A DNA stretch of 64,000 nucleotides. It comes from Trichodelitschia bisporula. Its lineage: Eukaryota. The DNA is taken from the NCBI GenBank assembly GCA_010356995.1, contig ML996709.1, positions 76,606 through 140,605 of the forward strand, written 5' to 3'. The position numbers and the translations under genes were made by a program. Shown in pieces: positions 7,944 through 28,051 of the stretch; position 1 is the first letter of the stretch; each line of letters opens with the position of its first letter. Under the pieces are notes generated by a model. That model had not been told where the DNA came from. It searched no databases and saw only the letters and a program-made list of their open reading frames with translations.

Positions 7944-9374
7944 ATGTTCATGGTATGCAAACAGATGTCCATGTACTCCAGGAGACAGCCGACCATGGAC
8001 CGCCTATGTGTCGACACCAGACTGCCCGACGAGCAGCATCACGGATTTGCGACGCCACTGACATCGTGCGGTGAGCGAAGGTCTTCCATCGGGTCGGCCA
8101 ACTGGTCATTCGTCGCCAATGACTTGGGAGTCTCGACTCAGCTGATGAGTGCCGCCTCGTCTTTTCACTCAACCGGTCTCGCCACGCCGTTGTCGTCAAT
8201 GTGTGGAGATCGTCGGTCTTCCATCGGGTCATCTCACTGGACTTTTGTCCCTCACGGTCCAGGCTCATCGTCCCACCCATCCAGTATAAGTTCCAGCTTT
8301 CAAGAACCATCGACACCGGTACGCGACATGCCGAGTGCCGAGATGGAGATTAACCTGGGAGCCATATCCCCCTGTCCGGTCGACAACTGGGACTCCTCTG
8401 GTGACCAGACGACGCTCCAAAGTGCCTCACCAGCAACGGTTTTCGGCTTCGAACCTGAGTACAAGGTTTGCCAGCCACATCCCGAAAGCTCGCCACAGGC
8501 GAATTTTGCCGAGTGGCCAGTCCCCGAGATGCCATACTTCTTCAACCCCGACAGCACTGAATTCACTCCGCAAATGCCATACGCCCAAAATCAGGTTCGC
8601 GTTTCCGAGCCGACCAGCTGGCCCATTGACCTTCACACTCCGGTCAAGAACGAAGACGGCCCCGGTTCCATGTATTTCACTCCGCGGGGCGAAACGGCTG
8701 ATCCGGTGTACACCTGGTACCATCCCCTCGCGTACAGCGACAGCTCGACCATGGTGCAACCAGGTACGCCAATGCAAGAGAAGGCTCCGACTCTGCTGCC
8801 GTCCCAGACGTTCGACTACGGCGCTATGAGCCCTAGTTACCGGGGCGAAAAGGATGCCGAAGAGTGGTCGCGAAAACCTGTACGCCGCATGTGCAAGAAA
8901 GGACTTCGCGGTAGCAGGCAGCCAACACAAGCTAGGAAACGGAGGGACATGCCAAAGGTCCCCGGTGTGCGGCTACGGCTCAACGAACCGGTCAAAGTGT
9001 GCGCTCGGAAGAAGCTCCGCTGCCAGCACATCCTCGAGGATGGCGAGCAGTGCTCAGGGAGCTTCTGGCGTGTCGAGCATCTGACGCGCCACGAAAAGAT
9101 TCACACAGGCGAGCTGCCGTTCCGGTGCCGGGTGGCGGCATGCACGAATAAGGGTCTGGGGCGCCAGGACAACCTGAGGGACCACTACAAGACGCATTTG
9201 AAGATGTCGGATTCGGGGAGAAACGAGCGATACCCGGCGGACAAGCTTTTCGAGCTGCTGCGGGAGAAGGAGGACCCGGAAGAAGCGGAGAAAATCATCA
9301 CCAAGTTGAAAAAGTGGATGGCCGATGGCGGCCACTTGAAAGATTTTCGGTCATCATCGCGCAAGTTGCATTGA
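7944..9374 (+). CDS. C2H2 zinc-finger transcription factor (two fingers, BrlA-like layout)
   Basis: 476-aa ORF. C-x8-C...F-x-R-x-EHLTRHEKIH-TGELPF-C-x4-C...RQDNLRDHYKTH, preceded by a Ser/Pro-rich region. Confidence 0.85.
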   Translation: MFMVCKQMSMYSRRQPTMDRLCVDTRLPDEQHHGFATPLTSCGERRSSIGSANWSFVANDLGVSTQLMSAASSFHSTGLATPLSSMCGDRRSSIGSSHWTFVPHGPGSSSHPSSISSSFQEPSTPVRDMPSAEMEINLGAISPCPVDNWDSSGDQTTLQSASPATVFGFEPEYKVCQPHPESSPQANFAEWPVPEMPYFFNPDSTEFTPQMPYAQNQVRVSEPTSWPIDLHTPVKNEDGPGSMYFTPRGETADPVYTWYHPLAYSDSSTMVQPGTPMQEKAPTLLPSQTFDYGAMSPSYRGEKDAEEWSRKPVRRMCKKGLRGSRQPTQARKRRDMPKVPGVRLRLNEPVKVCARKKLRCQHILEDGEQCSGSFWRVEHLTRHEKIHTGELPFRCRVAACTNKGLGRQDNLRDHYKTHLKMSDSGRNERYPADKLFELLREKEDPEEAEKIITKLKKWMADGGHLKDFRSSSRKLH

Positions 9375-10473
9375 TATTGAGGACAGTAGTGGTGGGGGGT
9401 AACTGCGGGCGTTCATAGTTGGTGTTGGTGTTGGTATCGGAGTCGGGGATGATGTAATGTATATCGGGCTATGTCGGCGTACGGACAAAATGGTTACTGC
9501 TGCGTGTGGATGCTAAGATATAAAGGGGCAGTAGGTAGGTAGACAGCGTCTGCTGGAGCAATGAAGTGAGGTTGAACACTTTGAATTCTCATGCTGTGAG
9601 GTCTCGAGATAGTTTCGACGTCGTTGGATAGCTGCATGCTAATCACGTGATGGCGCAACCCTTAATCATCGACGATCTCAAACAACAACGGGTTGAGAGA
9701 GGACGATAAACACCACATTTACCACAGTAACATCTTCTTCTTTTCGACAAGTTTCGATTCCTCAGCCTAGTGGTCAAGACTGTGGTGCCCGCACTCGGTG
9801 CCCTGCAGATATCCCCCGCTATTACTGGGGACAAACTGCCCGCACCCACGTCCCAATTCGGGCCGTCGATACAGCCACGTTGACTCAGCAAAATCTTACT
9901 CGGCTCAACCTCGGCTCAATACGCTCACGATTGCACCGCCTCAACTCACGCTTGCTCACGGTCACCTCAAACTCAATCATGGTCGCTCACGCTTGAATCT
10001 GGCTGCCTCAGGCTGCTCATGCTGTCGCTCAGTCTCACACTCGCGGTCCTGGTTCTGGGCCCCTCGTCATCTGAGCAGCCACGCAGTATGCGATGGGAAA
10101 AATGTCAAGTCGACGCGACCCTGTTGGGGGTCCCAGTTTCGGGATCCCCTTCATAGAGCGGCTGGAGGTGATTCACCGCCGGCGGGCTTGCTGATGCAAT
10201 AGGATGAGGCCCCTTAGGCGTAGCTGTCTGGATGGGATGATGGTGGTTGGATCATAGGGCGTCCTCTCCGTGTCACTCATTTCATGTTGAGCAAGGAAAT
10301 CCAGTCTCCCCTTCCCTCTAGAATCTTCAGCTGATGCGGGTTTTCAATATCAAACCAGTCTTCTCATTCTCTGTGTCCCTTCATTCTCTTTCTTTAAGTT
10401 CAATTGAACTCTTACACCATTTATCTTGCTTGCAGCACATTCAATATTATTACATCTCTTCTCCGGCCAGAGA

Positions 10474-10812
10474 ATGGCGAGAGGGAAGAATCCCGAAGCA
10501 CATTTCATTCGAGCGAGGGCGAGGGGCGCTCAGAAGGATACAGGGATCGTCAACGACAAGCCAGTGTTGAAGGGCCTTGAAGATGGGACGAAGCGAAATC
10601 ATCGGAGACAATTGGCTCTCTGGGACCAGTTTGTGGAAGACAACTTGAAGTTAAAACTGACAGTTTCAGTCCACAGCTTGAAATGGATGAAAGACTTCGT
10701 AAAGCATGTGGCACTCGGCATGGACGGGCAGAGAGGATATGATGACCCCGATAGCGACACAGACGAGGACGAGGACGGCTGGATACCTCCATGCGTCGAA
10801 AGCGTTCGAAAC
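10474..10812 (+). pseudogene. N-terminal fragment of a DUF3435-like (Starship captain) tyrosine recombinase, truncated by an LTR
   Basis: MARGKNPEAHFIRARARGAQKDTGI...RQLALWDQF...SLKWMKDFVKHVALGMDG...P..ESVRN resembles my recollection of captain N-termini (W..F...LK..KDFV...A.G.DG). Ends exactly at the LTR TGTCA at 10813. No catalytic domain remains. Confidence 0.6.
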
Positions 10813-11075
10813 TGTCACGGGGTGAGAAGTGAGAACACTAAGCACACTCGTTTGGATGCGAAGAGGTTCGATTGAACTTTCTACATAATGAAGGACAAGC
10901 GACTTAAGTACAAGAGTGTAAACACAGCTGTTAGTAAGCTTCTCCGAGTGTCTCGGGCGTTGCTAAGGAACATCCCGCCCTGGGCGGGATGAGGCTGAAC
11001 GCACATGCATGCTGATCGCGGCGGGTATGGCAGAACGCGCCTTAGCGCCAAGGAACCATGGGCTAGCCCATGACA
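10813..11075 (-). mobile_element. Solo LTR family A, copy 1 (263 bp)
   Basis: TGTCA...TGACA termini. Reverse complement of 13406-13668 with 2 differences seen. Flanks GAAAC / AGGAA, so no TSD. Confidence 0.9.
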
Positions 11076-11599
11076 AGGAATGGTTCGGGGAAGTGTCCGG
11101 CATGTAGGCATGCCGTGAACAGTTGTCCCAGGCGGCCCGATATTAGAGTCTTGCATGCCTTGAGAGCTTTGTTGGGGATCTGGTCCGGTCCTGGAGCCTT
11201 CCCATTGGGGGAGCGGCTGATTGTGGATTCCACCTCCTCTTTGGTAATTTCCTTTTTCATTTCGTGGCGCACGGATGGGATTCGCGCATGTGGTATGTCG
11301 GAGAGATCCGCACTCACTGGCGGGGGTGGAGCTTATCGGCTAGGATATCTGCCTTCCCTTCGTTGTCCGTTACCAACGGGTCATCTTTATCCGCGTGGAG
11401 GGCTGGCAGTTGTGGGGCGAGTGGGGGTTTGCCGGCTCGCGTGCGTGACCACTTTGAGATCCTCCAGAGGGTCGCGTTGTGGGGGACATCGGGATTTTGC
11501 GTTTCGCGGTGGAGAAATTGGCGCCATGAGTTGGTCCTATCGTGGCGAATCTTGCGCTTGAGTTGGTTGGTAAGTCGCTTGTGCTCAATAGGTCGGGGT
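11076..11599 (-). mobile_element. Fragment of a Tad1-like LINE ORF2 (region just upstream of RT), frameshifted
   Basis: KRKIRHDRTNSWRQFL...LWRISKWSR..GKPP.APQLPAL...DNEGKADILA, then in another frame ADLSDI...EITKEEVESTISRSPNGKAPGPDQIPNKALK...LFTACLHAGHFPEPF. Cut at both ends by LTRs. Confidence 0.85.
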
Positions 11600-11915
11600 T
11601 GATAAGGGTCTGCAGTAAAGTTGATAGTAGAGAAGTAGATGATCTCTCCCTTAACTCTTAAGGGGAGAGCAGTGGTTATATACAGAGTTGCACAGGGCTA
11701 CGTAGCTGTTCGGGTAGAGTTACCCGTACTAAGCTGGAGAGGAGACTAGCTAGCGGACGCATTGACCAAGCCGGATTGGAACAGGTTAGAGAGGCGGCTA
11801 TCCAAGCCGCCGGAGCATCGAGCCAATATACTAAGAGCCTAGTCCATGTATCTGTACCAACGCTTGCAGATAACCAAAGTCCCAACACACCAAGGTCTGT
11901 GTGTGGGGGCTGACA
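11600..11915 (-). mobile_element. Solo LTR family B (~316 bp)
   Basis: Minus strand reads TGTCAG...TATATAA...TTATCA (TG..CA ends with an internal TATA). Flanks GGGGT / CAAAG do not match. Confidence 0.65.
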
Positions 11916-12232
11916 CAAAGTGTGAGGACAGAAGGAAAACGTAGGTTTCCGTAGATTGACGTAGACTGAACTGACCTCCTGAATCTACCATCCAGGAGAT
12001 ATCTAAATACAATGAATGTGCTGTGCCTATTTAGGCAACCATACTATCTAAGAAGGAGAGATGAGTCAAATGCCTGACTCAAAGTGAACGACTAATAGTA
12101 CCCGAAGGCTACAGTGAACCATGACCAGTCTGACTCAGAGTGCTGCCTATTCCTGACCGGAATCCGAAGGCTGAACTGTAGAGTTATCCATCCACCGTCT
12201 GACAGTATTCCCATGTTCTCACGCCCCTGTCT

Positions 12233-12707
12233 TTACTTTGATACCTGTACCCAAAAACCCTCGCCCAAATCGTTTTCCCCACCAGCCCGAATATCGCCAT
12301 CAACTTCTTGACGACAATCTCTGATGAGTTCCTCCAATTTGTCTGCTACCACAGAGCACGGCACAGTACCGGGATTTCCCATAAGATAAAGGCGAATACC
12401 ATCTGGAGGATGGGAATATTTAGCAAGGCGTGCCTCTGCGATTTTCTGGAAGGGGGCGCTTACCTCTGTGAACCATCTGTGTCTTGCCCCCGTTGTGCTT
12501 GCACAGTCCTCCGTTCCTACGAAGCTCATTTGCCCCTATCTGAATGTTCGACACTCCAGGTGATCTCGGACTAGTTTCGCATCGTACATTGGCTGGCGCC
12601 CGCTTTTCGAGAATTTTTGAAGTTTGGTCTACGGTGCGCCGCTGGGACAGACTCGCGGCTGTTGCTGTTCCCAGCAGAAATGCAATGGTGATGGAGGAAA
12701 ACTTCAT
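12233..12707 (-). CDS. Small secreted Cys-containing effector-like protein (signal peptide + Kex2 propeptide), 2 exons (12707-12464, 12402-12233)
   Basis: MKFSSITIAFLLGTATAA-SLSQRR...ILEKR|APANVRCETSPRSP...LCKHNGG...VPCSVVADKLEELIRDC...DGDIRAGG...VSK*. A 61-bp intron GTAAGC..GCTAAA..CCAG keeps the frame. 4 Cys in the mature part. Confidence 0.85.
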
Positions 12708-13405
12708 GTTGGATACACCAAATTGAAACTGTAGGGATTTGTGGATTTACAAAGACTCCGAGAGCTGGGAAATGTTGAACTGACTGTCCAAAATGTGAGC
12801 CTACCGTCTACTTATACTTTTCGTGCCTCACTTACTCTAAAAACTTGTGCAGCCCAAGTGAGGCACATTTCGCTGTAAACCAGAACTGATGCCCAAATTC
12901 AGAATCCTACATTGCGAGCCGGGACGAAGTGGATGACCTCGGCAGGTTGAAAGCTTCCTGACAACTCAAATCTCGCCCCAAGGAAAAGATTTGCAGGAAG
13001 GCATCCATATTCCATATTCACTTAAAAATAAATTTACCTCAGGGTTGGCAAATCACATTTTTGGAACGAAGGATCTCCACGGCCCCAGGCCTTTTAAATA
13101 GTCAAATTAAGCTCTCAACCCTCTAACCCCTCCCCAAAGCCTAGATGGAATCTTCTGGGTCTACCCAGAACCGATAGGGTGGGGGTGGAGGCCAAAACGA
13201 AAGTTCCTGGCCCCTACTATAGAATGACCATGGGAACGGGTGTGCCCGTTTGGTTTTGGTAGAGGGCCTTGGCACGAAGCTGAAAAGACACAGGAGTAAC
13301 CAGATGGGTTTTTGCTCACACAATGTCACTCACACTTTGTATGCTTCCCGGACTGAAAACAAGCTCAAACAACCCTTTTTCTATTCGCCTTGGTCGCGCC
13401 ATTCC

Positions 13406-13668
13406 TGTCATGGGCTAGCCCATGGTTCCTTGGCGCTAAGGCGCGTTCTGCCATACCCGCCGCGATCAGCATGTATGTGCGTTCAGCCTCATCCCGCCCA
13501 GGGCGGGATGTTCCTTAGCAACGCCCGAGACACTCGGAGAAGCTTACTAACAGCTGTATTTACACTCTTGTACTTAAGTCGCTTGTCCTTCATTATGTAG
13601 AAAGTTCAATCGAACCTCTTCGCATCCAAACGAGTGTGCTTAGTGTTCTCACTTCTCACCCCGTGACA
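13406..13668 (+). mobile_element. Solo LTR family A, copy 2 (263 bp)
   Basis: TGTCA...TGACA with an internal TACTTAAG TATA-like motif. Inverted near-identical copy of 10813-11075. Flanks ATTCC / TGCGG, so no TSD. Confidence 0.9.
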
Positions 13669-14674
13669 TGCGGAGGCATACAGAGGGTAATGATGTTATT
13701 CTGCTGGCAATAGAGCTCGAATTCGGTCGAGTGGTGGCTTTCGTGGCCGTCGAGGATCAATAACCGGCATTTGCCTTTTGTCCGGGGAGCTGTATGGTGA
13801 TCAAAGTGCTTGATCCAATCCAGGCCTACCATATTAGTAGTCCAACCATTGTCGGTAGTTGCGAGGCGCCAGTCGGCTGGAAGGTTGCACTCTGAATACC
13901 AGTTGGCAAGATGGTATTGCGCGGCCAGGATAATGAAGGGAGGGATGGCCCAGCCGAGGGCATTGACTCCCTGGATCACTGTCGCCCACTCGCGGTTGCC
14001 AGGCTGGGCTAGTTTCACCTTGCTAAGGCCGTCCGATGTCGTGACCACCATGCCTGCGAAGATAATACCCATCATGAACCCAGTCTCGTCGAAGTTATAG
14101 ACATCGTCATCCACGATACCGTACTTGGCCGTAGTGTTCCGTACGAGCGCAAACCACTCGCTAATAACCGTCGGATCCTCGCACTTGGCCCTCTGGTAGT
14201 CGTATGTACGCGTATAACGCATATGGAGCTCAGGTTGGCGTTTGACAAAGTTGTGGGCCCAGCGTTTGCCGACAGGAGGCGCGTCACGTTCGCGTAGCAG
14301 TTGGTTGGCCATATCTTCCACACCACGCAATCTGGGCGGGAATGCACGCGCAGATAGCTCAATCACATATTGAACTATCGCCTTCTCTTCCAAGTTGGTA
14401 AGCTTGCGCGATTTGGCTGGTAGATCGCGTCGCGCAGGCCGGCCAGCAAGTCGGTCTTGCAAGGTTGTTCGTGGAACGTTGTAAAGCTTCGATACAGCTC
14501 TTACGTTAAGGTTTTCATTATTTCGAATAGCTTCAAGTGCTAGAATCATCCTAGCCTCTTACGAAGGAGAAGGCATGTTTTGTTGTGGAAGAATCTGGTG
14601 TGAATGTGAGAGACACGCATCGCGGTACGAAGTGGCCGGCTCGCTTATCTGGCCGGCTCGCTTATCATTCACGT
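13669..14674 (-). mobile_element. Fot1/Pogo (Tc1-mariner) DNA transposon, 5' half only
   Basis: TA (14675-14676) then TIR ACGTGAATGATAAGCGAGCCGGCCAGATAAGCGAGCCGGCC. HTH-psq/CENP-B HTH, YNFDETGF and LLILDGHESH motifs. Truncated at LCMPPH by LTR A2. ATG at 14576 is followed by an in-frame TAA at codon 6. Confidence 0.92.
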
Positions 14675-15013
14675 TATGCATTACTCTCCTTCAGCAAGCC
14701 TTTTCCTGGGCCTCTTCGACCCGCCTCGGCCGGTGAAAGAGGTATTGGGGGTGGAGTCCCTTGCGTCGCCGCCAGTACTTTGCTGACTGTTTCCTTGTGA
14801 TTGAAAATCAGGCTGGCTTGATCCCGAAAGATTATAGCGCTGAAGGTCTTCTGAAAGCCCAAAACTCTGGGAAAGTTGTGGAACGCTGAAATCCAAATCT
14901 GCCGGTATTTGGTCTATAGCTGAACATAGCCGTTTGAAGTGACTCGGCATCCATACGTCGTACACATTCTTGGTGAATTTGTATGCTGTCCACTTCTCCC
15001 TGCCATCTAGTTC

Positions 15014-16226
15014 CAGACCGGTCAATAATCAATATCAGATTGAGTATTGATTGGATTGATCGCCAAGATATTGCCAAGACCTCTTTCAATCCGATCCGAT
15101 CTGCTCATGGATTGTATTGAGGATTATCAATATATTATCAATATCTCTACCCAAAAGCTTCGATAAGCGTCGATAAGCGCCTAAAAGTAGGTCTATCGAG
15201 TACTTTATATCGCCTTCTATAAGCTGCTACGAGCTTCTATATGTATATAGCAAACGTGGATTTGTGGCCAATTTGTTGGTACATTTGATGTACGAATTTA
15301 TCTCTTACCATAAGGCTTCCCAGCAACCATTCCAAAACTTACCCCCACTTAGCTCCGGTACGCAGCTTCCTCATTTACACGTCCAATATACGCGTCAATT
15401 ATGGTGCCAAGCTATTTCCGGGCCTTTCCGAAGCTCTCCGAGCTCTCTAACACATATATTTCTACATGGTGATTTGACGCAGTACGCACTTCTCCTCATA
15501 GGGGCGAAACTAAATCCGGCCTAGCGCCAGCTAATAGGAGCCCCCACTCGCGGTCTCCATCATCTCTCATCTTCCAGATGATCCCTCGTCTCTCACATCA
15601 CTGTCACGGTATGACACCCGGTTTCTGTTGCTCCATGGACTCGCACCATCACCGGGTTTGTATGGGGCTTGGCGCGGTGCCAAGCCGCCACACTCACACT
15701 CGTACACCAGGCCTACTTACCCGCAGTCCCTGACACCTTTACTCCGTAGCTTTACAATCTACGTCTTACCCACATCTTGATCGTGCATGCGTGATTGTTG
15801 ACGGTGACAACCTCACCCAATCAGCAAATCAGCGTTGGCATGGTGGTGCGAAGAGTCTCAAGTGCGCACCTATCCTCATCTTGCTCGCATGGCAATCGTT
15901 GTCATGTCCGTTCCATCGTCAGCGGATGAGAACGAGCGGGTATTTTCTGGAGGTAGACGCACGCTGTCATGGGACCGAGCATCGCTGTCACCTCAGCACG
16001 TGGAGATGAATGAGTGTATCGTCAGCTGACACTCAGAAGGGTTAATTGGGACTTTCTTTGCTGGTGACGATGAGACCATGGTTGAGGTTTTGAACGATTA
16101 GCATGGTTACGTGATGTAGATTGACAATAATTGATAATATATTGAGATTGATTGCCAAGACTCGATCTCTTGGCAATCAATACAATATGGATCGGATATT
16201 GGATTGATTGATTATTGACCGGTCTG
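15014..16226 (+). mobile_element. Internally deleted hAT DNA transposon
   Basis: TIR CAGACCGGTCAATAATCAAT / ATTGATTATTGACCGGTCTG. Exact 8-bp TSD TCTAGTTC (15006-15013, 16227-16234). hAT dimerisation remnant WW...YPHLARMAIVVMSVPSSADENERVFSGGRRTL at ~15835-16029. Confidence 0.93.
15602..15809 (+). mobile_element. Solo LTR family C (208 bp) nested in the hAT element
   Basis: TGTCACGGT...ACGGTGACA inverted termini, internal TACTTA motif. Flanks ATCAC / ACCTC do not match. Confidence 0.7.
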
Positions 16227-18936
16227 TCTAGTTCTGTGAAGCTGAACTCGCGTATTAGATGGCGGTAATACTTGGTGTCCTTCCCATCAATGACTGGGTA
16301 GTGTCCATAGATCCTCACCGACCTATGGTCATGCGAGATTGAGAAGGCGAGAATCTCCCGGTGAAGCTCCATTTCACGACCAATGAGTCTGAAGAGCTCG
16401 ACGGTAGCTCTTACTGCAAGTGTCATGCTGTGAGCATTCTGTCGGTCCGCGATGTCGAGCGCTGTAGCACCGCACTTCACCTCACAAGTAAGGAACGGGA
16501 AGTACATGTAGTACGTGGCCATGAAGTATGACTGATCGCCGGAGATGAAGTTGCCAATGAACGGGGCAAGCTTGTCGAGCTGCTCTTTGGTAAATGCCTC
16601 TCGCTTGAATCCCACAGAGAAGTCCGGCTGTGGACATGTTCCTGTCAAAGGCAAGGAGTTATTCCAGCCTTCGTTGGTGCTCTCGATCAAGATCTTGAGA
16701 TGTCCAGCACCATATGTAGTCAGAGTCTCGGCTGACGGCACGATCAGAAGGGAGATATCCCGGATGACCCTGGTCTCATTCCTGTCCTGTATGTTTTGGC
16801 ATGTCCGTTTGAACAGATCATCGCGGAATAGCGATTCACTGGGAACCGTTTGTTTTGCATCAAGTAAGTTCAAATAACTTTTCTTGCTCTGCTGAATGAT
16901 GTCCAGATCCGATTCTTCCATAAAGCTACCTTTGGTTGCAAGCAAGAGTTTGTAACGTGGATCCTGGTAGGGAGCGCTCTTAACTTCTCTCGGCTTTTGG
17001 TCGCTGGGTGTTGTGGAGCTCGGCGCCACAGAAGTCGGCGCAGTAGTAGAAGCTGGATCAACCGAGACCATTGCAGATTTCTTCCGGCGAAAGGAGCCCG
17101 AAGACTTCTGCCTGGCAAGTAGATGGCTCATGTCGTTGTCACTCTGCTCGGAGTATCCTTCGGGCCAGTGTCCTGTCTTTGTCCAGTACAATATGGGATC
17201 TTTTTGACCGTCGACGTTGTCTGCCTCCTCTTGTTCGGCTGAGCTGTCAACAGCAGCTTTGTCAGGATTGTGTCGTGCCCGTTTGCGAGAAGCACCAGTT
17301 GCGCCAGATTCTGAGATATTTAGGCGTCGCTTTCTCCCTCCGGCTTGCTGGACAGGTAAGGGCTGCTGGACAAGTTTTCGAGGCCGCTTAGATCGTCTGA
17401 GGTCGGCGGCTTGCTCGGCTTCCAATGTTCGAGATCGTTTTCGCGTCGCCGCTTTCTGAGCAGAGGACGTATTTGTTTGATTGCGATTGCCAGTTCGGGG
17501 GCGTAAGTTTCTGCGCAATGAATTGCCCTCAACGACTGGTTCCTAGGTATCGTTAGATCTCTGCCAACAACAGACGCAGTCGCACGCTTGCCTCTTGTCG
17601 CTTATTATCCGTCTGAGTCGCAGACTCTTTCTCAATCGCCGACGTCTTCACAGCACGGGAGGTTCGGGGACGGGTAAGATGTTTGCGGTTTCTAGGATGC
17701 GCTTCGAGGTATTAGAACTTGCTTGATACTGTTATCGCACACCAAGATGTATTTACATACCTTTATCCTCTGAGGACGGCATAGGCAGTTTTTGCTGGGC
17801 GGCTAGAGGCTTCGAACGGGCGGCCATATTGAGTCGAGATATCGGTTGCTTATGTCTTGCCGCCGGGTTTTGTTGCGGAGTTATCTAGCGCAGAAGTGAG
17901 AAGTATGACAGAATCCAACGACAACGCCAAGCCACTTGGATACCGCAACGCACGTGCCCCTATCCCTGTCACTTAGTCCCGCCAGCTATCACCACCATCT
18001 TTGCACATATGCCGTTACTCCGTAGCTAAGTGACAGCAACACGTTCGCTACGCATCATGGAGAATCGCTAAAGCACCATTTTTATGATGATTTTTGAGCT
18101 CACGCCATCTCGGCTGGACACACTCCGTTTCTAAGAATCTATTTATCTATGGTTCGACATGCTTCTGGATCTACACCATCATCTACGCAGGAATGCGTGC
18201 GGGAATGGGTAGAGAAGAGCAAGGAGAGTTAGGCTTCAAGAAAGTATCAGTCCAGCTAGGCAGCTTAGGGCCATAGTTCAAACAACAATTCAGGCTGCCG
18301 TTTGCCATCCATGCCTCTTCTTTGGAATATCACACGTACTTCGGAGGAGAACCGGCTTTCCTAGCGGGCACTGTACCCAGGCTCCAGCACTAGCATCCGC
18401 GTGGCACAATTACTGCCTGGAGACCATGACTAGGTAGCTGTACGTTCATGCCAGCATGCTGTGGTGCATCGCCCCTACGACTTATCACCAAGTCCTCAAT
18501 CTAATCGAGCGCCTGGACATGCTGGCATGGATGAGCAACCTGTTATAGTGCCAAACGATGAGCCATCATTACAGGAGTATCAGGAGTCTTGTATCCATTC
18601 AGCATGCGCAGAAGATGCAGTTGTTCCACCATCAGATCATACTTTGAAGGCCCGCTGGCACTAGCTGCCTATACCATGCTCGTTGAGCATTATGCGCTGC
18701 TCACGTCGCAGTTCAGGCAGTAGAGAGGCGCTTGACGGAAGCACATCTCGACGTTTCTACTTCCGGTGAGCATGCTTTGACCCTGCACACAGTACGATAC
18801 GACCCGCTAGTAGCAGTGGTTTCTCACACAGCCCCGCTCAACTATGGCCGATATGCCTCCCATGGAGGATTCATTCTCCAATCGGGTATCTCCAGCTCGC
18901 CCCTGGATGTCACCAAGAGCTTGTGACTTCTTGGGT

Positions 18937-19218
18937 GTGGTTTTGACGACGACAGACGTCCTGCAATGTATGGCTCCAGCTCGTTTGGGAGGTGCCTTGT
19001 CACTCGTCAGTCTAAGAGACGCTTCCTGGTAGTGGCTTTGACAACGACAGACGTCCTGCAGTGTATGGCTCCAGCTCGCCTGGTAGGCGCATCGTCAAAC
19101 AACTCGTCAGTAGATACTCAGTGGCTTTGACGACGACAGACGTCCTGCAATGTATGGTTCCGACTCACTTGGGGGTTGCATCGTCAAACAACTCGTCAGA
19201 GACGCCTCCCTGGCAGTG
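18937..19218. repeat. Three tandem ~90-bp repeats
   Basis: GTGG(T/C)TTTGAC(G/A)ACGACAGACGTCCTGCA(A/G)TGTATGG starts at 18937, 19032 and 19121. Confidence 0.9.
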
Positions 19219-20224
19219 GCGGCAGCGGGTCCCGTACTCCTTCATGGTAATGTTTTGTTCAATGTCACCCCTCGCGATCCTCGTCCAGTCATTGGCGATC
19301 AGAATAGAACAGACTAACCTTGTCATAAGGCTTGGGGAGCCTTTGGTCACTATCACTTCTGTTAGAGGGTTCTGGATAATAACTCAGTGAGCTGATAGTC
19401 TTTCGATGTAAAGTCTCTTTACAACTTGATTGAAGATAGATAGTCAGAAATTTTAAACTCTGTTCTGTATTAAACTCAATTGTGAAAGCTACAAAGATCA
19501 TTATGTACCGCTAGCTGAACTCACTCGTAATAATCGACCCACAGTTCTCACTTCGCTTGCCGACACTGTATGCGAATCGAATTATTTAGGCCGCCTTGAG
19601 GACTGCAGATCAAAGGAAAGTATTACCGGTACAGGGGGTCGAAGAGCTAAGCCACAGATGACTGGGGCCCGAAAATGGGACCAGTCAGTCTGTGACACCC
19701 CATATCCCTACGAGCTGATTGGGGCCCAATTTCAGACCCTCTTCATGCTGCTCAGGGATAAAATCAGGCACAATCAGAGAGGCTCAGGCTTGAATCAAGC
19801 ACGATCACGCCGGCTCACGCCGGCTCACGTTCGCTCAGGACGAGCTCATGAGTGCTCAGCCACAGCTCAGTTGCTTACTAACAGCTCACGTTACACCCCG
19901 GCGTAACTCACGTCTCAAAACAGAAATGGCCACTGTGTGAGGGCATTTTGTCCCCGTGTATATACCGCTATTCCCCCACGCATACATGCATCTCCCACCA
20001 ATCACTCCCATGGCGTCGCGAGATAGCCCCCTCGCCTATCTCCAAAAGCTGCCTCTCAGCCCTCAGCTGCTGCAGGGCATTCGAAAGGCGTTCGCAGCCT
20101 GGGCCCAGCATCCGATCTGCTTATCAGACGGCCCGCGCCGCACGATGGAGAATGAAGTCATCTGCATCTCGCTGATCCCTCATTGACTCGCAGGGATCGC
20201 GCCAGGCACGCAAGCATCATAACA

Positions 20225-22650
20225 ATGGCTCATCATCCCACAGAGCGTACCCATCTGCTCTATCCTCGCCTCCATGCCGATGATGACGCCCGCTCGTTGC
20301 GCTCCGCAATCTCCAAGGAGGAAGGTGCACTCGCGGCAACGGCCGTTGGGGAACGTCTGCCGTACAACGACTACACAACCATCGACTGGCTGCACGACCT
20401 GGTGAGCTACGGCCGTCTGTCGTCATTTGGGACGGGAGGTTAACATTCCAGATCAAAGAGGCATACCGCCGTCGCGCGATCCATGGCGAGCCTGGCATCC
20501 GCGGATCGCTCTTTGCCGCCTTCGATGCCTGCTCTGGATGGATCGCCGTCACCCTCATCGGCGTGCTGATGGCGCTGGTTGCCTGTGCGGTTGACCTCGC
20601 TGTGGCTACGGTCTCGGATCTCAAGTTTGGATACTGTTCGCTGAATCCGCTGCTCAGCCGCGAGGCGTGCTGTCGTTCGGCCGGTGCGGAGGATGAGGAT
20701 GGCCAATGCAAAGAGTTTACGCTGTGGTCCACATCCTTCGGCCCTCAGTTCGGTATCTACGTGGCATGGGCGGTGCTGTTTGGCGTTATTTCGTCCTTCA
20801 TTACCATGTTCTCGAAGCGCTCTCTACCCCGATCCGCGCCGGGCCATGGCGACAAGCACCACGACAACCCCAAGTTCAACCTGCCAGTGAGCTCCACTCA
20901 GACTGGCAAGTCGATGTATATGTCTGCTGGCTCTGGAATTCCCGAAATCAAGGTAGGTTTATGTCATTTTCCACTTCTCTGTGGGTTCTGACTTCGTAGA
21001 CCATTCTCGCCGGGTTTGTCATTCCTCACTTCTTGGATCTCCGCGTCCTCTTTCTCAAGGGCATCGGCGCCGTATTCTCCGTTGCTACAGGTATGGCATT
21101 GGGTAAAGAAGGCCCTTTTGTACACATGGCCGCCTGCCTCGGGCATTTTGTTGCGAACCTATTTCCCAAGTACAAAGAGAATGGAAAGCAGTTTCGCGAG
21201 ATTCTTACTGCGGCCTGCGCCTCAGGGCTAAGTGCAGCATTTGGTGCACCGATTGGAGGCGTACTGTTTGCATACGAGGTATGTCACGCATACTGTGTTA
21301 ACATGTCTAACAGCGCAGGAACTGAGCTGCTACTTTCCACGCAAAGTACTATGGCGCACATTCCTCTGCTCCATGGTCGCCGCCATGACACTGCGCGCGC
21401 TCAACCCGCATAAAACCGGCAAACTCGTGCTCTTCGAGACCAACTATGGCACCAGCTACCAGCCGCACCACTATCTCGTGTTCGTCCTCATCGGAATTGC
21501 AGGCGGTCTATGGGGCGGCACCTTCACCAATGCCAACTATCTGTGGGCGCGGTGGTTCCGGAAGCATTCGATAATTCGCAACAACCCCGTCTTTGAGGTC
21601 TTCCTGATCATCCTTGTTACCGCTGCGCTGCAATTTCCGAACCCCGCTACGCGCGCCCCTGGGGATGCCATCATCCGCAATCTACTCGTAGACTGCAAGT
21701 CCATCGGCGATCATCCGTCTTGGGTGTGCGACAGTGAGGCCTCCCCGCACCGCGGCACCTACGTCGCATGGCTCGCGTACGGTACGCTGGTGCAACTCGC
21801 GTCCACAACCATAACCTTCGGGCTCAAGGTCCCCGCCGGCATCATCATTCCGGCGCTAGACGGCGGCGCGCTCTTCGGGCGCTTAATCGGGCAATGGGTC
21901 GCAGGAACGCACATTTCACCAGGAATTTTTGCCATGGTCGGTGCTGCCGCCTTCCTCGCCGGCGTAACGCGCATGACGATCAGCCTCTGCGTGATCATGT
22001 TCGAGCTCACGGGCGAGCTGGAGTACGTGCTCCCGCACATGATTGCCATCCTGTGCGCGAAATGGACCGCCGATTTGCTGAGCAAGGAGAGCATCTACGA
22101 CCTTGCGCAATCAGTCCTGGGACACCCGTTTCTCAATGCTGACGAGGCGATGGAGCTAGTGGAGACGCAGGGTGCGTTTGTTGAACAGCTTATCCCGCCT
22201 GCGGAGACGATGGCTGAGCTCACTATCGCTGTGCCGCCGAGCAATAAAGTCGCGCGACGCGTACTTGAGGAAAAGCTTGGGTTCCTCGAGCGGCGCGGGC
22301 TCATGGATGGAGGTGTGGTGCTTGTGCAGCATGGCGGGGTGCTGCAGGGGTACATGGCGCAGAACGAGCTCGATTATGGGCTCAAGGAGCTTGGAGCTGG
22401 GTTTGGAGCGGATGCTGAGGTGCGGTTACTTGGGTATGCGACGGTGGAGGGCGAGTTCGATCTCAGCGTTTTTGTGGATAGGGCGCCGGTGAGTATTTGC
22501 GCGAAGGCGCCGATGGAGGTGGCGGTGGAGATTTTTACGAAGTTGGGGGTTAGGTATTTGTGTGTTACGGAGGAGGGCACGGGGCGTCTTGTTGGGTTTG
22601 TGATTAAGAAGCGGGTGTTGAGTTATTTGGATTCGTTGAAGCACCATTAG
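20225..22650 (+). CDS. ClC-family chloride channel/antiporter with CBS domains (introns 20402-20451, 20953-20999, 21279-21318)
   Basis: DYTTIDWLHD, GSGIPEIK, GKEGPFVH, FGAPIGGVLF, AGVTRMTISLCVIMFELTG signatures and a C-terminal CBS. The start could lie further upstream. Confidence 0.95.
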
Positions 22651-27165: not shown

Positions 27166-28051
27166 ACGCTGAGAACCTAGACTGTAAGTGTGATTTGAGA
27201 ATACCAGATTCTCAAAAAGGTCGTTGAGGTTCGAGGTGTGTCCGAGATTTGGATGCGGGAGGAAGCGTGGGTTGATAAATGCGCCATCTTGATCAAATAG
27301 TGAGTTTATTAGTGATAAAGGGTGGAGGAACAACGGGCTTTGTGGATGATGCTGGACGAATGGAGAGTGATCCGTGAAAGCGGAGATAGTGAGGGAAATC
27401 GACGGTTAGTGAGGGATATGGATTGAGAGAGAGACATCGTAAGTCAGTGAGGATCGCTGAAGTTGCGAGCAGACTTCAATGGGAGTGAAGTGTGTGAGAA
27501 GATTGAGGTATCGTGGATGTCTCTGCGCAGGAAGCTGTTCGTGAGATGCAAGAAAGCACTTGAGCAAAATTGACAATGAAAATTGCACTGGCCCGAGTGA
27601 CAAGTCATGCCACAATGAACGACGAGCCCATGGAAAGCTCAACAAACTTCATTCAATTAGAGGTCGGCGCCTGGACGACTTCATCCATCTTGCGGATATA
27701 TGCTTCGGTCCCCATGATACCGGAGAGAACCCTGAGCAGGAGTGTTCAAAACCCACGCCCTGACCTTTGCAAAGGGACTTTCAATAGCGAGGGGCGGGGA
27801 GAAGGGTTGAACGACGCAGTAGTTCCGTATCTACAGCCTCCAGTCGTCTAAGCAGTCTGCGATCCGACGTTCGCCATGACTTCACTGGCCTCTGATTAGC
27901 TTGTTTGCAAAACCATCTGAGTGGGATGAGGGCTTCTCTAATTCGACCATCTCGCTTGGATTGACATCGTGAGTGACTTTGCGCCCATCAGAAATGCAGT
28001 AAACAGACCACTGTGGAGCACGACGTTCGGATCATAGGCCGGGTACCTCAA

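Follow-up and report, generated by a model that had tools for sequence, protein, structure and literature searches.

The window analyzed here is a 64,000-nucleotide stretch of the Trichodelitschia bisporula genome (GenBank assembly GCA_010356995.1, contig ML996709.1, positions 76,606 to 140,605), in which an island of 10.15 kb (window positions 9816–19972) lies between two host genes, one for a C2H2 transcription factor (ending at 9374) and one for a CLC channel (starting at about 20225). This island is a derelict Starship, a broken but unusually tidy member of an already known class of elements, whose mobility enzyme has been lost. With a probability of about 0.85, we read it as a collapsed Starship of the Enterprise (fam06) captain clade that inserted between the two host genes, was shortened by recombination between long terminal repeats (LTRs) and retained both of its ends. 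The features that carry this interpretation are listed below; L051 denotes a metagenomic locus with a related captain.

9816..9823, + strand: direct repeat CCGCTATT of the left end, with a GCTAT(T) core, proposed as the recombination/target site; start of the similarity to L051
9827..9848, + strand: left terminal inverted repeat, 19/22 match to the right arm, continuing to 9859 at 76%; conserved in L051
9882..10037, + strand: left subterminal (G)CTCA array, 14 copies, period about 10.2 base pairs (bp)
10474..10812, + strand: N-terminal stub of the captain (DUF3435 tyrosine recombinase), 113 residues, no catalytic residues left
19751..19917, + strand: right subterminal (G)CTCA array, 11 copies, period about 10.3 bp, on the same strand as the left array
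19934..19955, − strand: right terminal inverted repeat, 19/22 match to the left arm
19965..19972, + strand: right direct repeat CCGCTATT, placed by repeat anatomy

Element ends and phased arrays

Each end presents a direct repeat, an offset inverted repeat and an array, all within about 270 bp. The 8-bp sequence CCGCTATT has only two copies in the window (9816 and 19965), and random pairs of 20-bp segments have an 8-mer in common 0.26% of the time, giving a chance of about 0.003 for such a pair. The match between the inverted repeats, which are separated from CCGCTATT by spacers of 3 bp on the left and 9 bp on the right, found no equal among roughly 3000 randomly chosen 150-bp window pairs. 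A genome search with the end pattern returned the two element ends as the only exact matches, the pattern having been derived from them.

A metagenome scan of 425 candidate stretches yielded three loci with related captains (L051, L052 and L053), while none were found in prokaryote genome contigs (175 candidate stretches) or viral contigs (252). L051 is 73% identical to the window over 344 bp from position 9826; counted per 10 bases, its ungapped identity is 0, 4, 4, 1, 2 and 1 outside GCTAT at 9818, and 6, 8, 8 and 6 inside it. The captain stub begins 656 bp inside the left boundary, pointing inward as the first gene, and the corresponding distance in L051 is 718 bp. The original prediction, made from the DNA alone, of a Starship collapsed to about 10 kb with both termini kept is upheld by the captain stub, the direct and inverted repeats and the arrays. 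Its boundaries, at 9895 and 19907, have to be moved outward, since the similarity to L051 reaches about 77 bp further, to 9818, and CCGCTATT lies outside them, by about 80 bp on the left and 60 bp on the right. At the left boundary of L051 there is a palindrome, TATAGCTATA, and the flank of this locus (L051:1–800) holds a minus-strand stretch resembling an open reading frame (ORF), with QQQST repeats, which is unrelated to the flank in the window.

That the two ends share sequence motifs, as the same prediction had noted, was confirmed for CTCA, with 14 and 11 copies per 220 bp at the two ends versus a mean of 1.1 over the window. No other place on the plus strand is as dense in CTCA, the next best holding 5; the best on the minus strand holds 8. 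L051 carries 14 (G)CTCA copies at the corresponding place, with a best period of 10.3 bp. Compared with random placement, the phasing of the left array has p = 0.003, and for the right array and L051 none of 5000 random placements each was as well phased. In a genome-wide search with a triple-GCTCA pattern, 4 of the 7 matches fell in the right array, while the reversed-pattern control gave 0. As the period amounts to one helix turn, the motifs would lie on one face of the DNA, like a row of protein-binding sites, and we consider the odds that they are captain-binding sites to be evenly balanced. Once the element is excised as a circle, a form of excision shown for Hephaestus, its arrays would stand on either side of the crossover site in head-to-tail order. 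In limited literature searches, no published description of phased arrays at Starship ends was found.

Separately, the next densest cluster after the element ends is formed by 8 minus-strand CTCA motifs within 220 bp at 27381–27601.

Captain stub, interior debris and cargo genes

The first gene was described in the original prediction as an inward ORF (10474–10812) cut exactly by an LTR, and indeed a 263-bp repeat begins at 10813, immediately after codon 113. The protein search proposed there for the 113-residue fragment gave six matches among longer proteins from 157 candidates, the DUF3435-positive P0004 among them. The suspected captain identity is secured by an 84–86% identity to fungal captains: P0001 is 86% identical over the entire stub, P0002 of Phaeosphaeria 84%, and P0004 of Rutstroemia 86% over half of it, followed by P0005 of Lophiostoma and two weaker matches. 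The cut-off of PF11917 (DUF3435) is passed by P0004 and P0007, and not by P0001, P0002, P0003, P0005, P0006 or P0010.

P0007 is dennan1_619325 (Dendryphion nanum 619325), with 28 of 31 residues identical to the stub. The supplement of PMC11162782 lists it as fam06 and P0004 as a recombinase without family, and three other accessions were not found in the supplement rows examined. The Enterprise captain is likewise given as fam06, and Table 1 of the same paper names family 6 Enterprise. From this near identity to a listed fam06 captain (28/31), rather than from a tree or a family hidden Markov model, the stub probably falls in the Enterprise family. A motif search of Table S7 of that paper returned four 'gctat' entries, two of which are the direct repeats of altgai1_s00148, a 161-kb fam06 Starship of Alternaria gaisen. 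Its direct repeat is gctatt, with gaps to the inverted repeats of 1 and 9 bp (PMC11162782, Table S7); measured from GCTATT, the gaps in our element are 3 and 11 bp, which is the same 8-bp asymmetry.

Captain identities between Pleosporales and Helotiales range from 75 to 89% and would be compatible with horizontal spread. Aligned with its relatives, the stub breaks off some 100 residues short of their SSARI motif, which we take to be the first catalytic motif, so that the catalytic core has been lost. The intact captain of an active Starship, with its R-K-H-R-Y catalytic residues, is not present here, and searches of the genome with P0004 and P0010 did not find the rest of the captain. A multicopy family from another captain clade (N-terminus MSTQNFAHLL), whose broken members are nearly identical, was seen at six loci (L043, L045, L046, L047, L048 and L007), several of them followed by retroelement-like sequence.

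The interior of the island contains the following features, including a miniature inverted-repeat transposable element (MITE) and a probable fragment of a long interspersed nuclear element (LINE).

10813..11075, no strand: solo-LTR-like repeat 1, TG...CA ends, 263 bp, cutting the captain; no target-site duplication
11076..11690 (approximate limits), − strand: probable LINE ORF2 fragment (KAPGPD motif), cut by LTR 1
12233..12707, − strand: intact small secreted-protein gene, 137 residues; exons 12464–12707 and 12233–12402
13406..13668, no strand: solo-LTR-like repeat 2, inverted relative to repeat 1, cutting the pogo transposase; no target-site duplication
13669..14674, − strand: truncated pogo/Fot1-type DNA transposon, ORF from 14549; intact end ACGT beside TA 14675–14676
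14681..15013, − strand: 3' part of the DUF7924 gene, split off by the MITE; PF25545 positions 189–225
15014..16226, no strand: hAT-like MITE, 1213 bp, 20-bp inverted ends, 8-bp target duplication TCTAGTTC
16227..17827, − strand: 5' part of the DUF7924 gene; PF25545 E 6.7e-96; introns 17542–17590 and 17702–17760 spliced (RNA joints)
18936..19199, + strand: 80-bp degenerate unit in three copies, at spacings of 95 and 89 bp, lying in the RNA contig upstream of the DUF7924 gene

The two LTR copies are 99% identical, with 2 differences, and a target duplication is absent in every pairing of their flanks. With these missing duplications and with genes cut at the LTR edges, each copy is probably a recombination junction at which the DNA between two LTR copies was removed. 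Repeat 1 has an 88% relative on contig C24, and loose ends show another near-identical copy with a different flank. The two copies were also considered as inverted termini of a single DNA transposon; this reading was rejected, as each has its own TG...CA ends and the relative stands alone on C24. The inner LTR flanks (11076–11083 and 13399–13405), read outward from the LTR, begin with nearly the same 7–8 bases (AGGAATGG and GGAATGG), a similarity that may reflect chance, target preference or the remnant of a shared neighbor.

The pogo ORF matches DDE_1, HTH_Tnp_Tc5 and HTH_psq above the Pfam cut-off, and the transposon is inserted 4 bp past the DUF7924 stop codon (14675–14681). The fragment at 11076–11690 is presumably of LINE origin, from its motifs, and was confirmed by neither Pfam nor the PDB. 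The MITE contains a 208-bp multicopy solo LTR (15602–15809), and its copy on contig C26 (L015, 67530–68740) is 99.6% identical and has no 8-bp target duplication. Position 15899 reads A in all covering runs of X1 and X2 and in part of X4 versus T in the assembly, possibly an assembly error.

Of the interior contents originally described, the transposon debris and the secreted-protein gene were confirmed, and the 'nuclease-like' gene was identified as a DUF7924 gene which is not intact, being split by the 1213-bp MITE, with Pfam positions 2–200 and 189–225 on its opposite sides. In Atlas comparisons the product scores 0.94 to DUF7924 clusters and 0.89 to a PDDEXK_12 cluster, a lead only toward a predicted PD-(D/E)XK nuclease-like protein. 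An RNA joint at 19078–19168, upstream of this gene, matches a single repeat unit and could reflect a collapse rather than an intron.

The secreted-protein gene, by contrast with the split DUF7924 gene, is the intact effector-like cargo gene that had been claimed, and its splicing is seen in RNA contigs. In contigs X3 and X4, which come from one sample of one study, GT..AG introns are skipped at 12403–12463 and at 12784–12835, the latter in the 5' untranslated region, and also in the DUF7924 and CLC genes. Skipping of GT..AG introns identifies these contigs as RNA, and the gene is thus transcribed. The contigs with this gene extend into both inverted LTRs (window 10937–13435), and they show neither starts nor ends. 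A transcript across both inverted LTRs could fold back or be LTR-driven.

The encoded protein has 4 cysteines, a signal-like N-terminus and a KR site at 35–36, and its gene is single-copy in the genome. A HMMER search with exon 1 gave 8 matches, among which P0020 is apparently spurious. The best homolog, P0014 of Tothia fuscella, matches exon 1 with 52% and exon 2 with 60% identity. The Atlas model of P0014 (predicted local distance difference test, pLDDT, 0.76) matches Ecp2/Hce2 clusters with template modeling (TM) scores of 0.79–0.85 and a Kp4 cluster with 0.68, family scores that lie under the tool's bar, and its features score 0.91 to a cluster in which 22% of the members carry Hce2. AlphaFold, given an alignment of 8 rows, modeled the cargo homolog with a pLDDT of 40.7, too low for use, and Pfam Hce2 (PF14856) and Kp4 (PF09044) matched neither the secreted-protein gene nor its 7 listed homologs. 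From the structural model of its homolog, the product is a probable secreted protein with an Ecp2/Hce2-KP4-like fold, whose likeliest role would be an antimicrobial or effector activity. Both this gene and the DUF7924 gene would have arrived with the element.

Proposed history and alternative explanations

These features lead to the hypothesis of a stepwise collapse. A Starship of the fam06 clade would have integrated between the C2H2 transcription-factor gene and the CLC channel gene when its tyrosine recombinase carried out a crossover at a site with a GCTAT(T) core, and CCGCTATT would have been left at what appear to be the two boundaries of the element. LTR retrotransposons, the pogo element, the MITE and, judged by its motifs only, a probable LINE then nested inside it, as their remains show. 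Most of the interior, with all that followed captain codon 113, would subsequently have been lost through recombination between LTR copies. What remains is a 10.15-kb derelict incapable of moving itself, with cis-acting ends that look intact and a secreted-protein cargo gene that stays intact and transcribed.

Those undamaged-looking ends could also be explained by a working non-autonomous mini-Starship, in which a helper captain maintains them by moving the 10-kb unit together with its secreted-protein cargo. There is a precedent in a captain supplied in trans, which restored excision of a frameshifted mini-Hephaestus (PMC10104507). Such a mini-element would be expected to be present in several copies that share their ends, or to be accompanied by a cognate helper captain, and neither appears in the one assembly available, which is possibly incomplete. 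The genome-wide search with both termini, also proposed originally as a way to find relatives, showed each end to be single-copy in the 25.8-Mb assembly. For a captain of the same clade, the search with P0004 found only the stub, the search with P0010 found nothing, and the genome's 11 PF11917 matches, all in 7 loci, score no better than E 1.4 with the clade profile. We give this explanation a slim chance, and mobilization in trans is currently unlikely, though possible in principle. Should the arrays be arm-type captain sites and the ends still competent, the derelict would form a natural minimal unit that an incoming Starship of the same clade might remobilize with its secreted-protein gene, a prospect that we regard as doubtful.

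A chimera, in which the left and right ends come from two insertions of the same family that were joined by LTR recombination and were never one element, has the attraction that both LTRs join unrelated pieces in which target duplications are missing, and it makes the same predictions for the ends as a single element. Nevertheless, the full 8-bp repeat, which is 2 bp longer than the GCTATT core of another fam06 element (PMC11162782), is identical at the two ends, and there are host genes on either side, with a plausible 0.7-kb gap left after removal of the element, which makes a chimera improbable.

Much less can be said for a TTAC-type element with CTTACT as its boundary, near 9895 and 19874–19907, as the original prediction had it from the occurrence of this hexamer near both ends. 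TTAC is the core of the Hephaestus family (PMC11162782), whereas the classified relative belongs to fam06, and neither the TTAC(N7)A target nor the TTAC direct repeat of that family is found here. The plus strand of the 64-kb window has 11 copies of CTTACT, 5 of which fall in the 9–21 kb region, and 82% of random pairs of 100-bp segments have some 6-mer in common. The copy at 9895 lies inside the stretch matching L051, yet is not conserved there, and the proposed copies are internal to the conserved end and the right array, so we consider this reading very improbable. Least credible of all is the capture of a captain fragment by a DDE transposon of the hAT or MULE type: inverted repeats with an 8-bp direct repeat do resemble hAT anatomy, but a DDE target duplication must abut the inverted repeats, while here they are 3 and 9 bp apart, and the same left end precedes the captain in L051 at a similar distance (718 versus 656 bp).

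Turning back to the single collapsed Starship, several observations weigh against it. All four runs (at most two samples) carry the element, and no empty site was seen; their joints include no empty-site or circle junction, which is no evidence given that they come from contigs with rare variants dropped. The usual auxiliary genes DUF3723, FRE, PLP and NLR are absent from the element, and the stub itself has no Pfam match. The family call uses a 31-residue overlap with P0007 and links via P0001, P0004 being family-less, and the likeness to altgai1_s00148 concerns a single element picked by motif search. The left end is common to one of the three metagenome loci (L051); L052 and L053 have no array or GCTAT in the 930 and 792 bp upstream. 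Finally, the proposed right boundary is placed by repeat anatomy only.

Two further marks were looked for. No insertion in a 5S rRNA gene was indicated, with no Rfam match up to E 0.1 in 9000–21000, where short split halves could escape and the flanks are intergenic. Dinucleotide indices gave no strong sign that any segment had undergone repeat-induced point mutation.

Derelict Starships are common and the class is ordinary, and the value of this one resides in its well-defined ends. For the question of how captains recognize their termini, the element is a compact candidate, with a phased array conserved in a distant relative. The host, for its part, retains one expressed secreted-protein gene after the death of its vehicle.

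Comparison with known systems

At 10.15 kb, the element is smaller than the lower Starship sizes of 15–16 kb given in PMC13728883 and bioRxiv 10.1101/2025.02.28.640899. Its cargo protein resembles the KP4 superfamily in being small, cysteine-containing and secreted, and the predicted model of its homolog P0014 matches Ecp2/Hce2 and Kp4 clusters; Ecp2 and KP4 have been placed in one structural superfamily, with antimicrobial roles proposed (PMC12382754). It differs from that superfamily in having no Pfam Hce2/Kp4 match, the predicted fold being taken from the homolog.

With Hephaestus and mini-Hephaestus of Paecilomyces variotii, the likely common point is the mechanism, captain recombination between flanking repeats via a circle (PMC10104507; bioRxiv 10.64898/2026.09.21.753150). 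Hephaestus belongs to another family, targets TTAC(N7)A and is active, and its mini version, the one rescued by a captain in trans, was engineered (PMC10104507; bioRxiv 10.64898/2026.09.21.753150). Tangerine of Xanthoria also has unequal spacers between direct and inverted repeats (14 and 28 bp) and a degraded copy with one intact gene, but it is a large element of another family bounded by an observed empty site (PMC13486527).

Closer likenesses are found among Enterprise-family Starships. As in altgai1_s00148 and dennan1_619325, the captain, which probably belongs to this clade, points inward as the first gene, and the direct-repeat core is gctatt (PMC11162782). The differences from altgai1_s00148 lie in size (161 kb versus 10 kb here), in the inverted-repeat sequence, in the 50% captain cluster and in our captain being cut to 113 residues, with neither FRE nor DUF3723 in the element. 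The Enterprise/Spok block of Podospora differs in its repeat (RGGTAG), in its Spok cargo genes and in that no inverted repeats were found at its ends, as described in PMC8092012. It belongs, however, to the family proposed for our element; its targets are partly palindromic, which the palindrome at the left boundary of L051 recalls, and degraded copies that likewise keep both ends have been described, among them a 5.5-kb remnant of a 39-kb element (PMC8092012).

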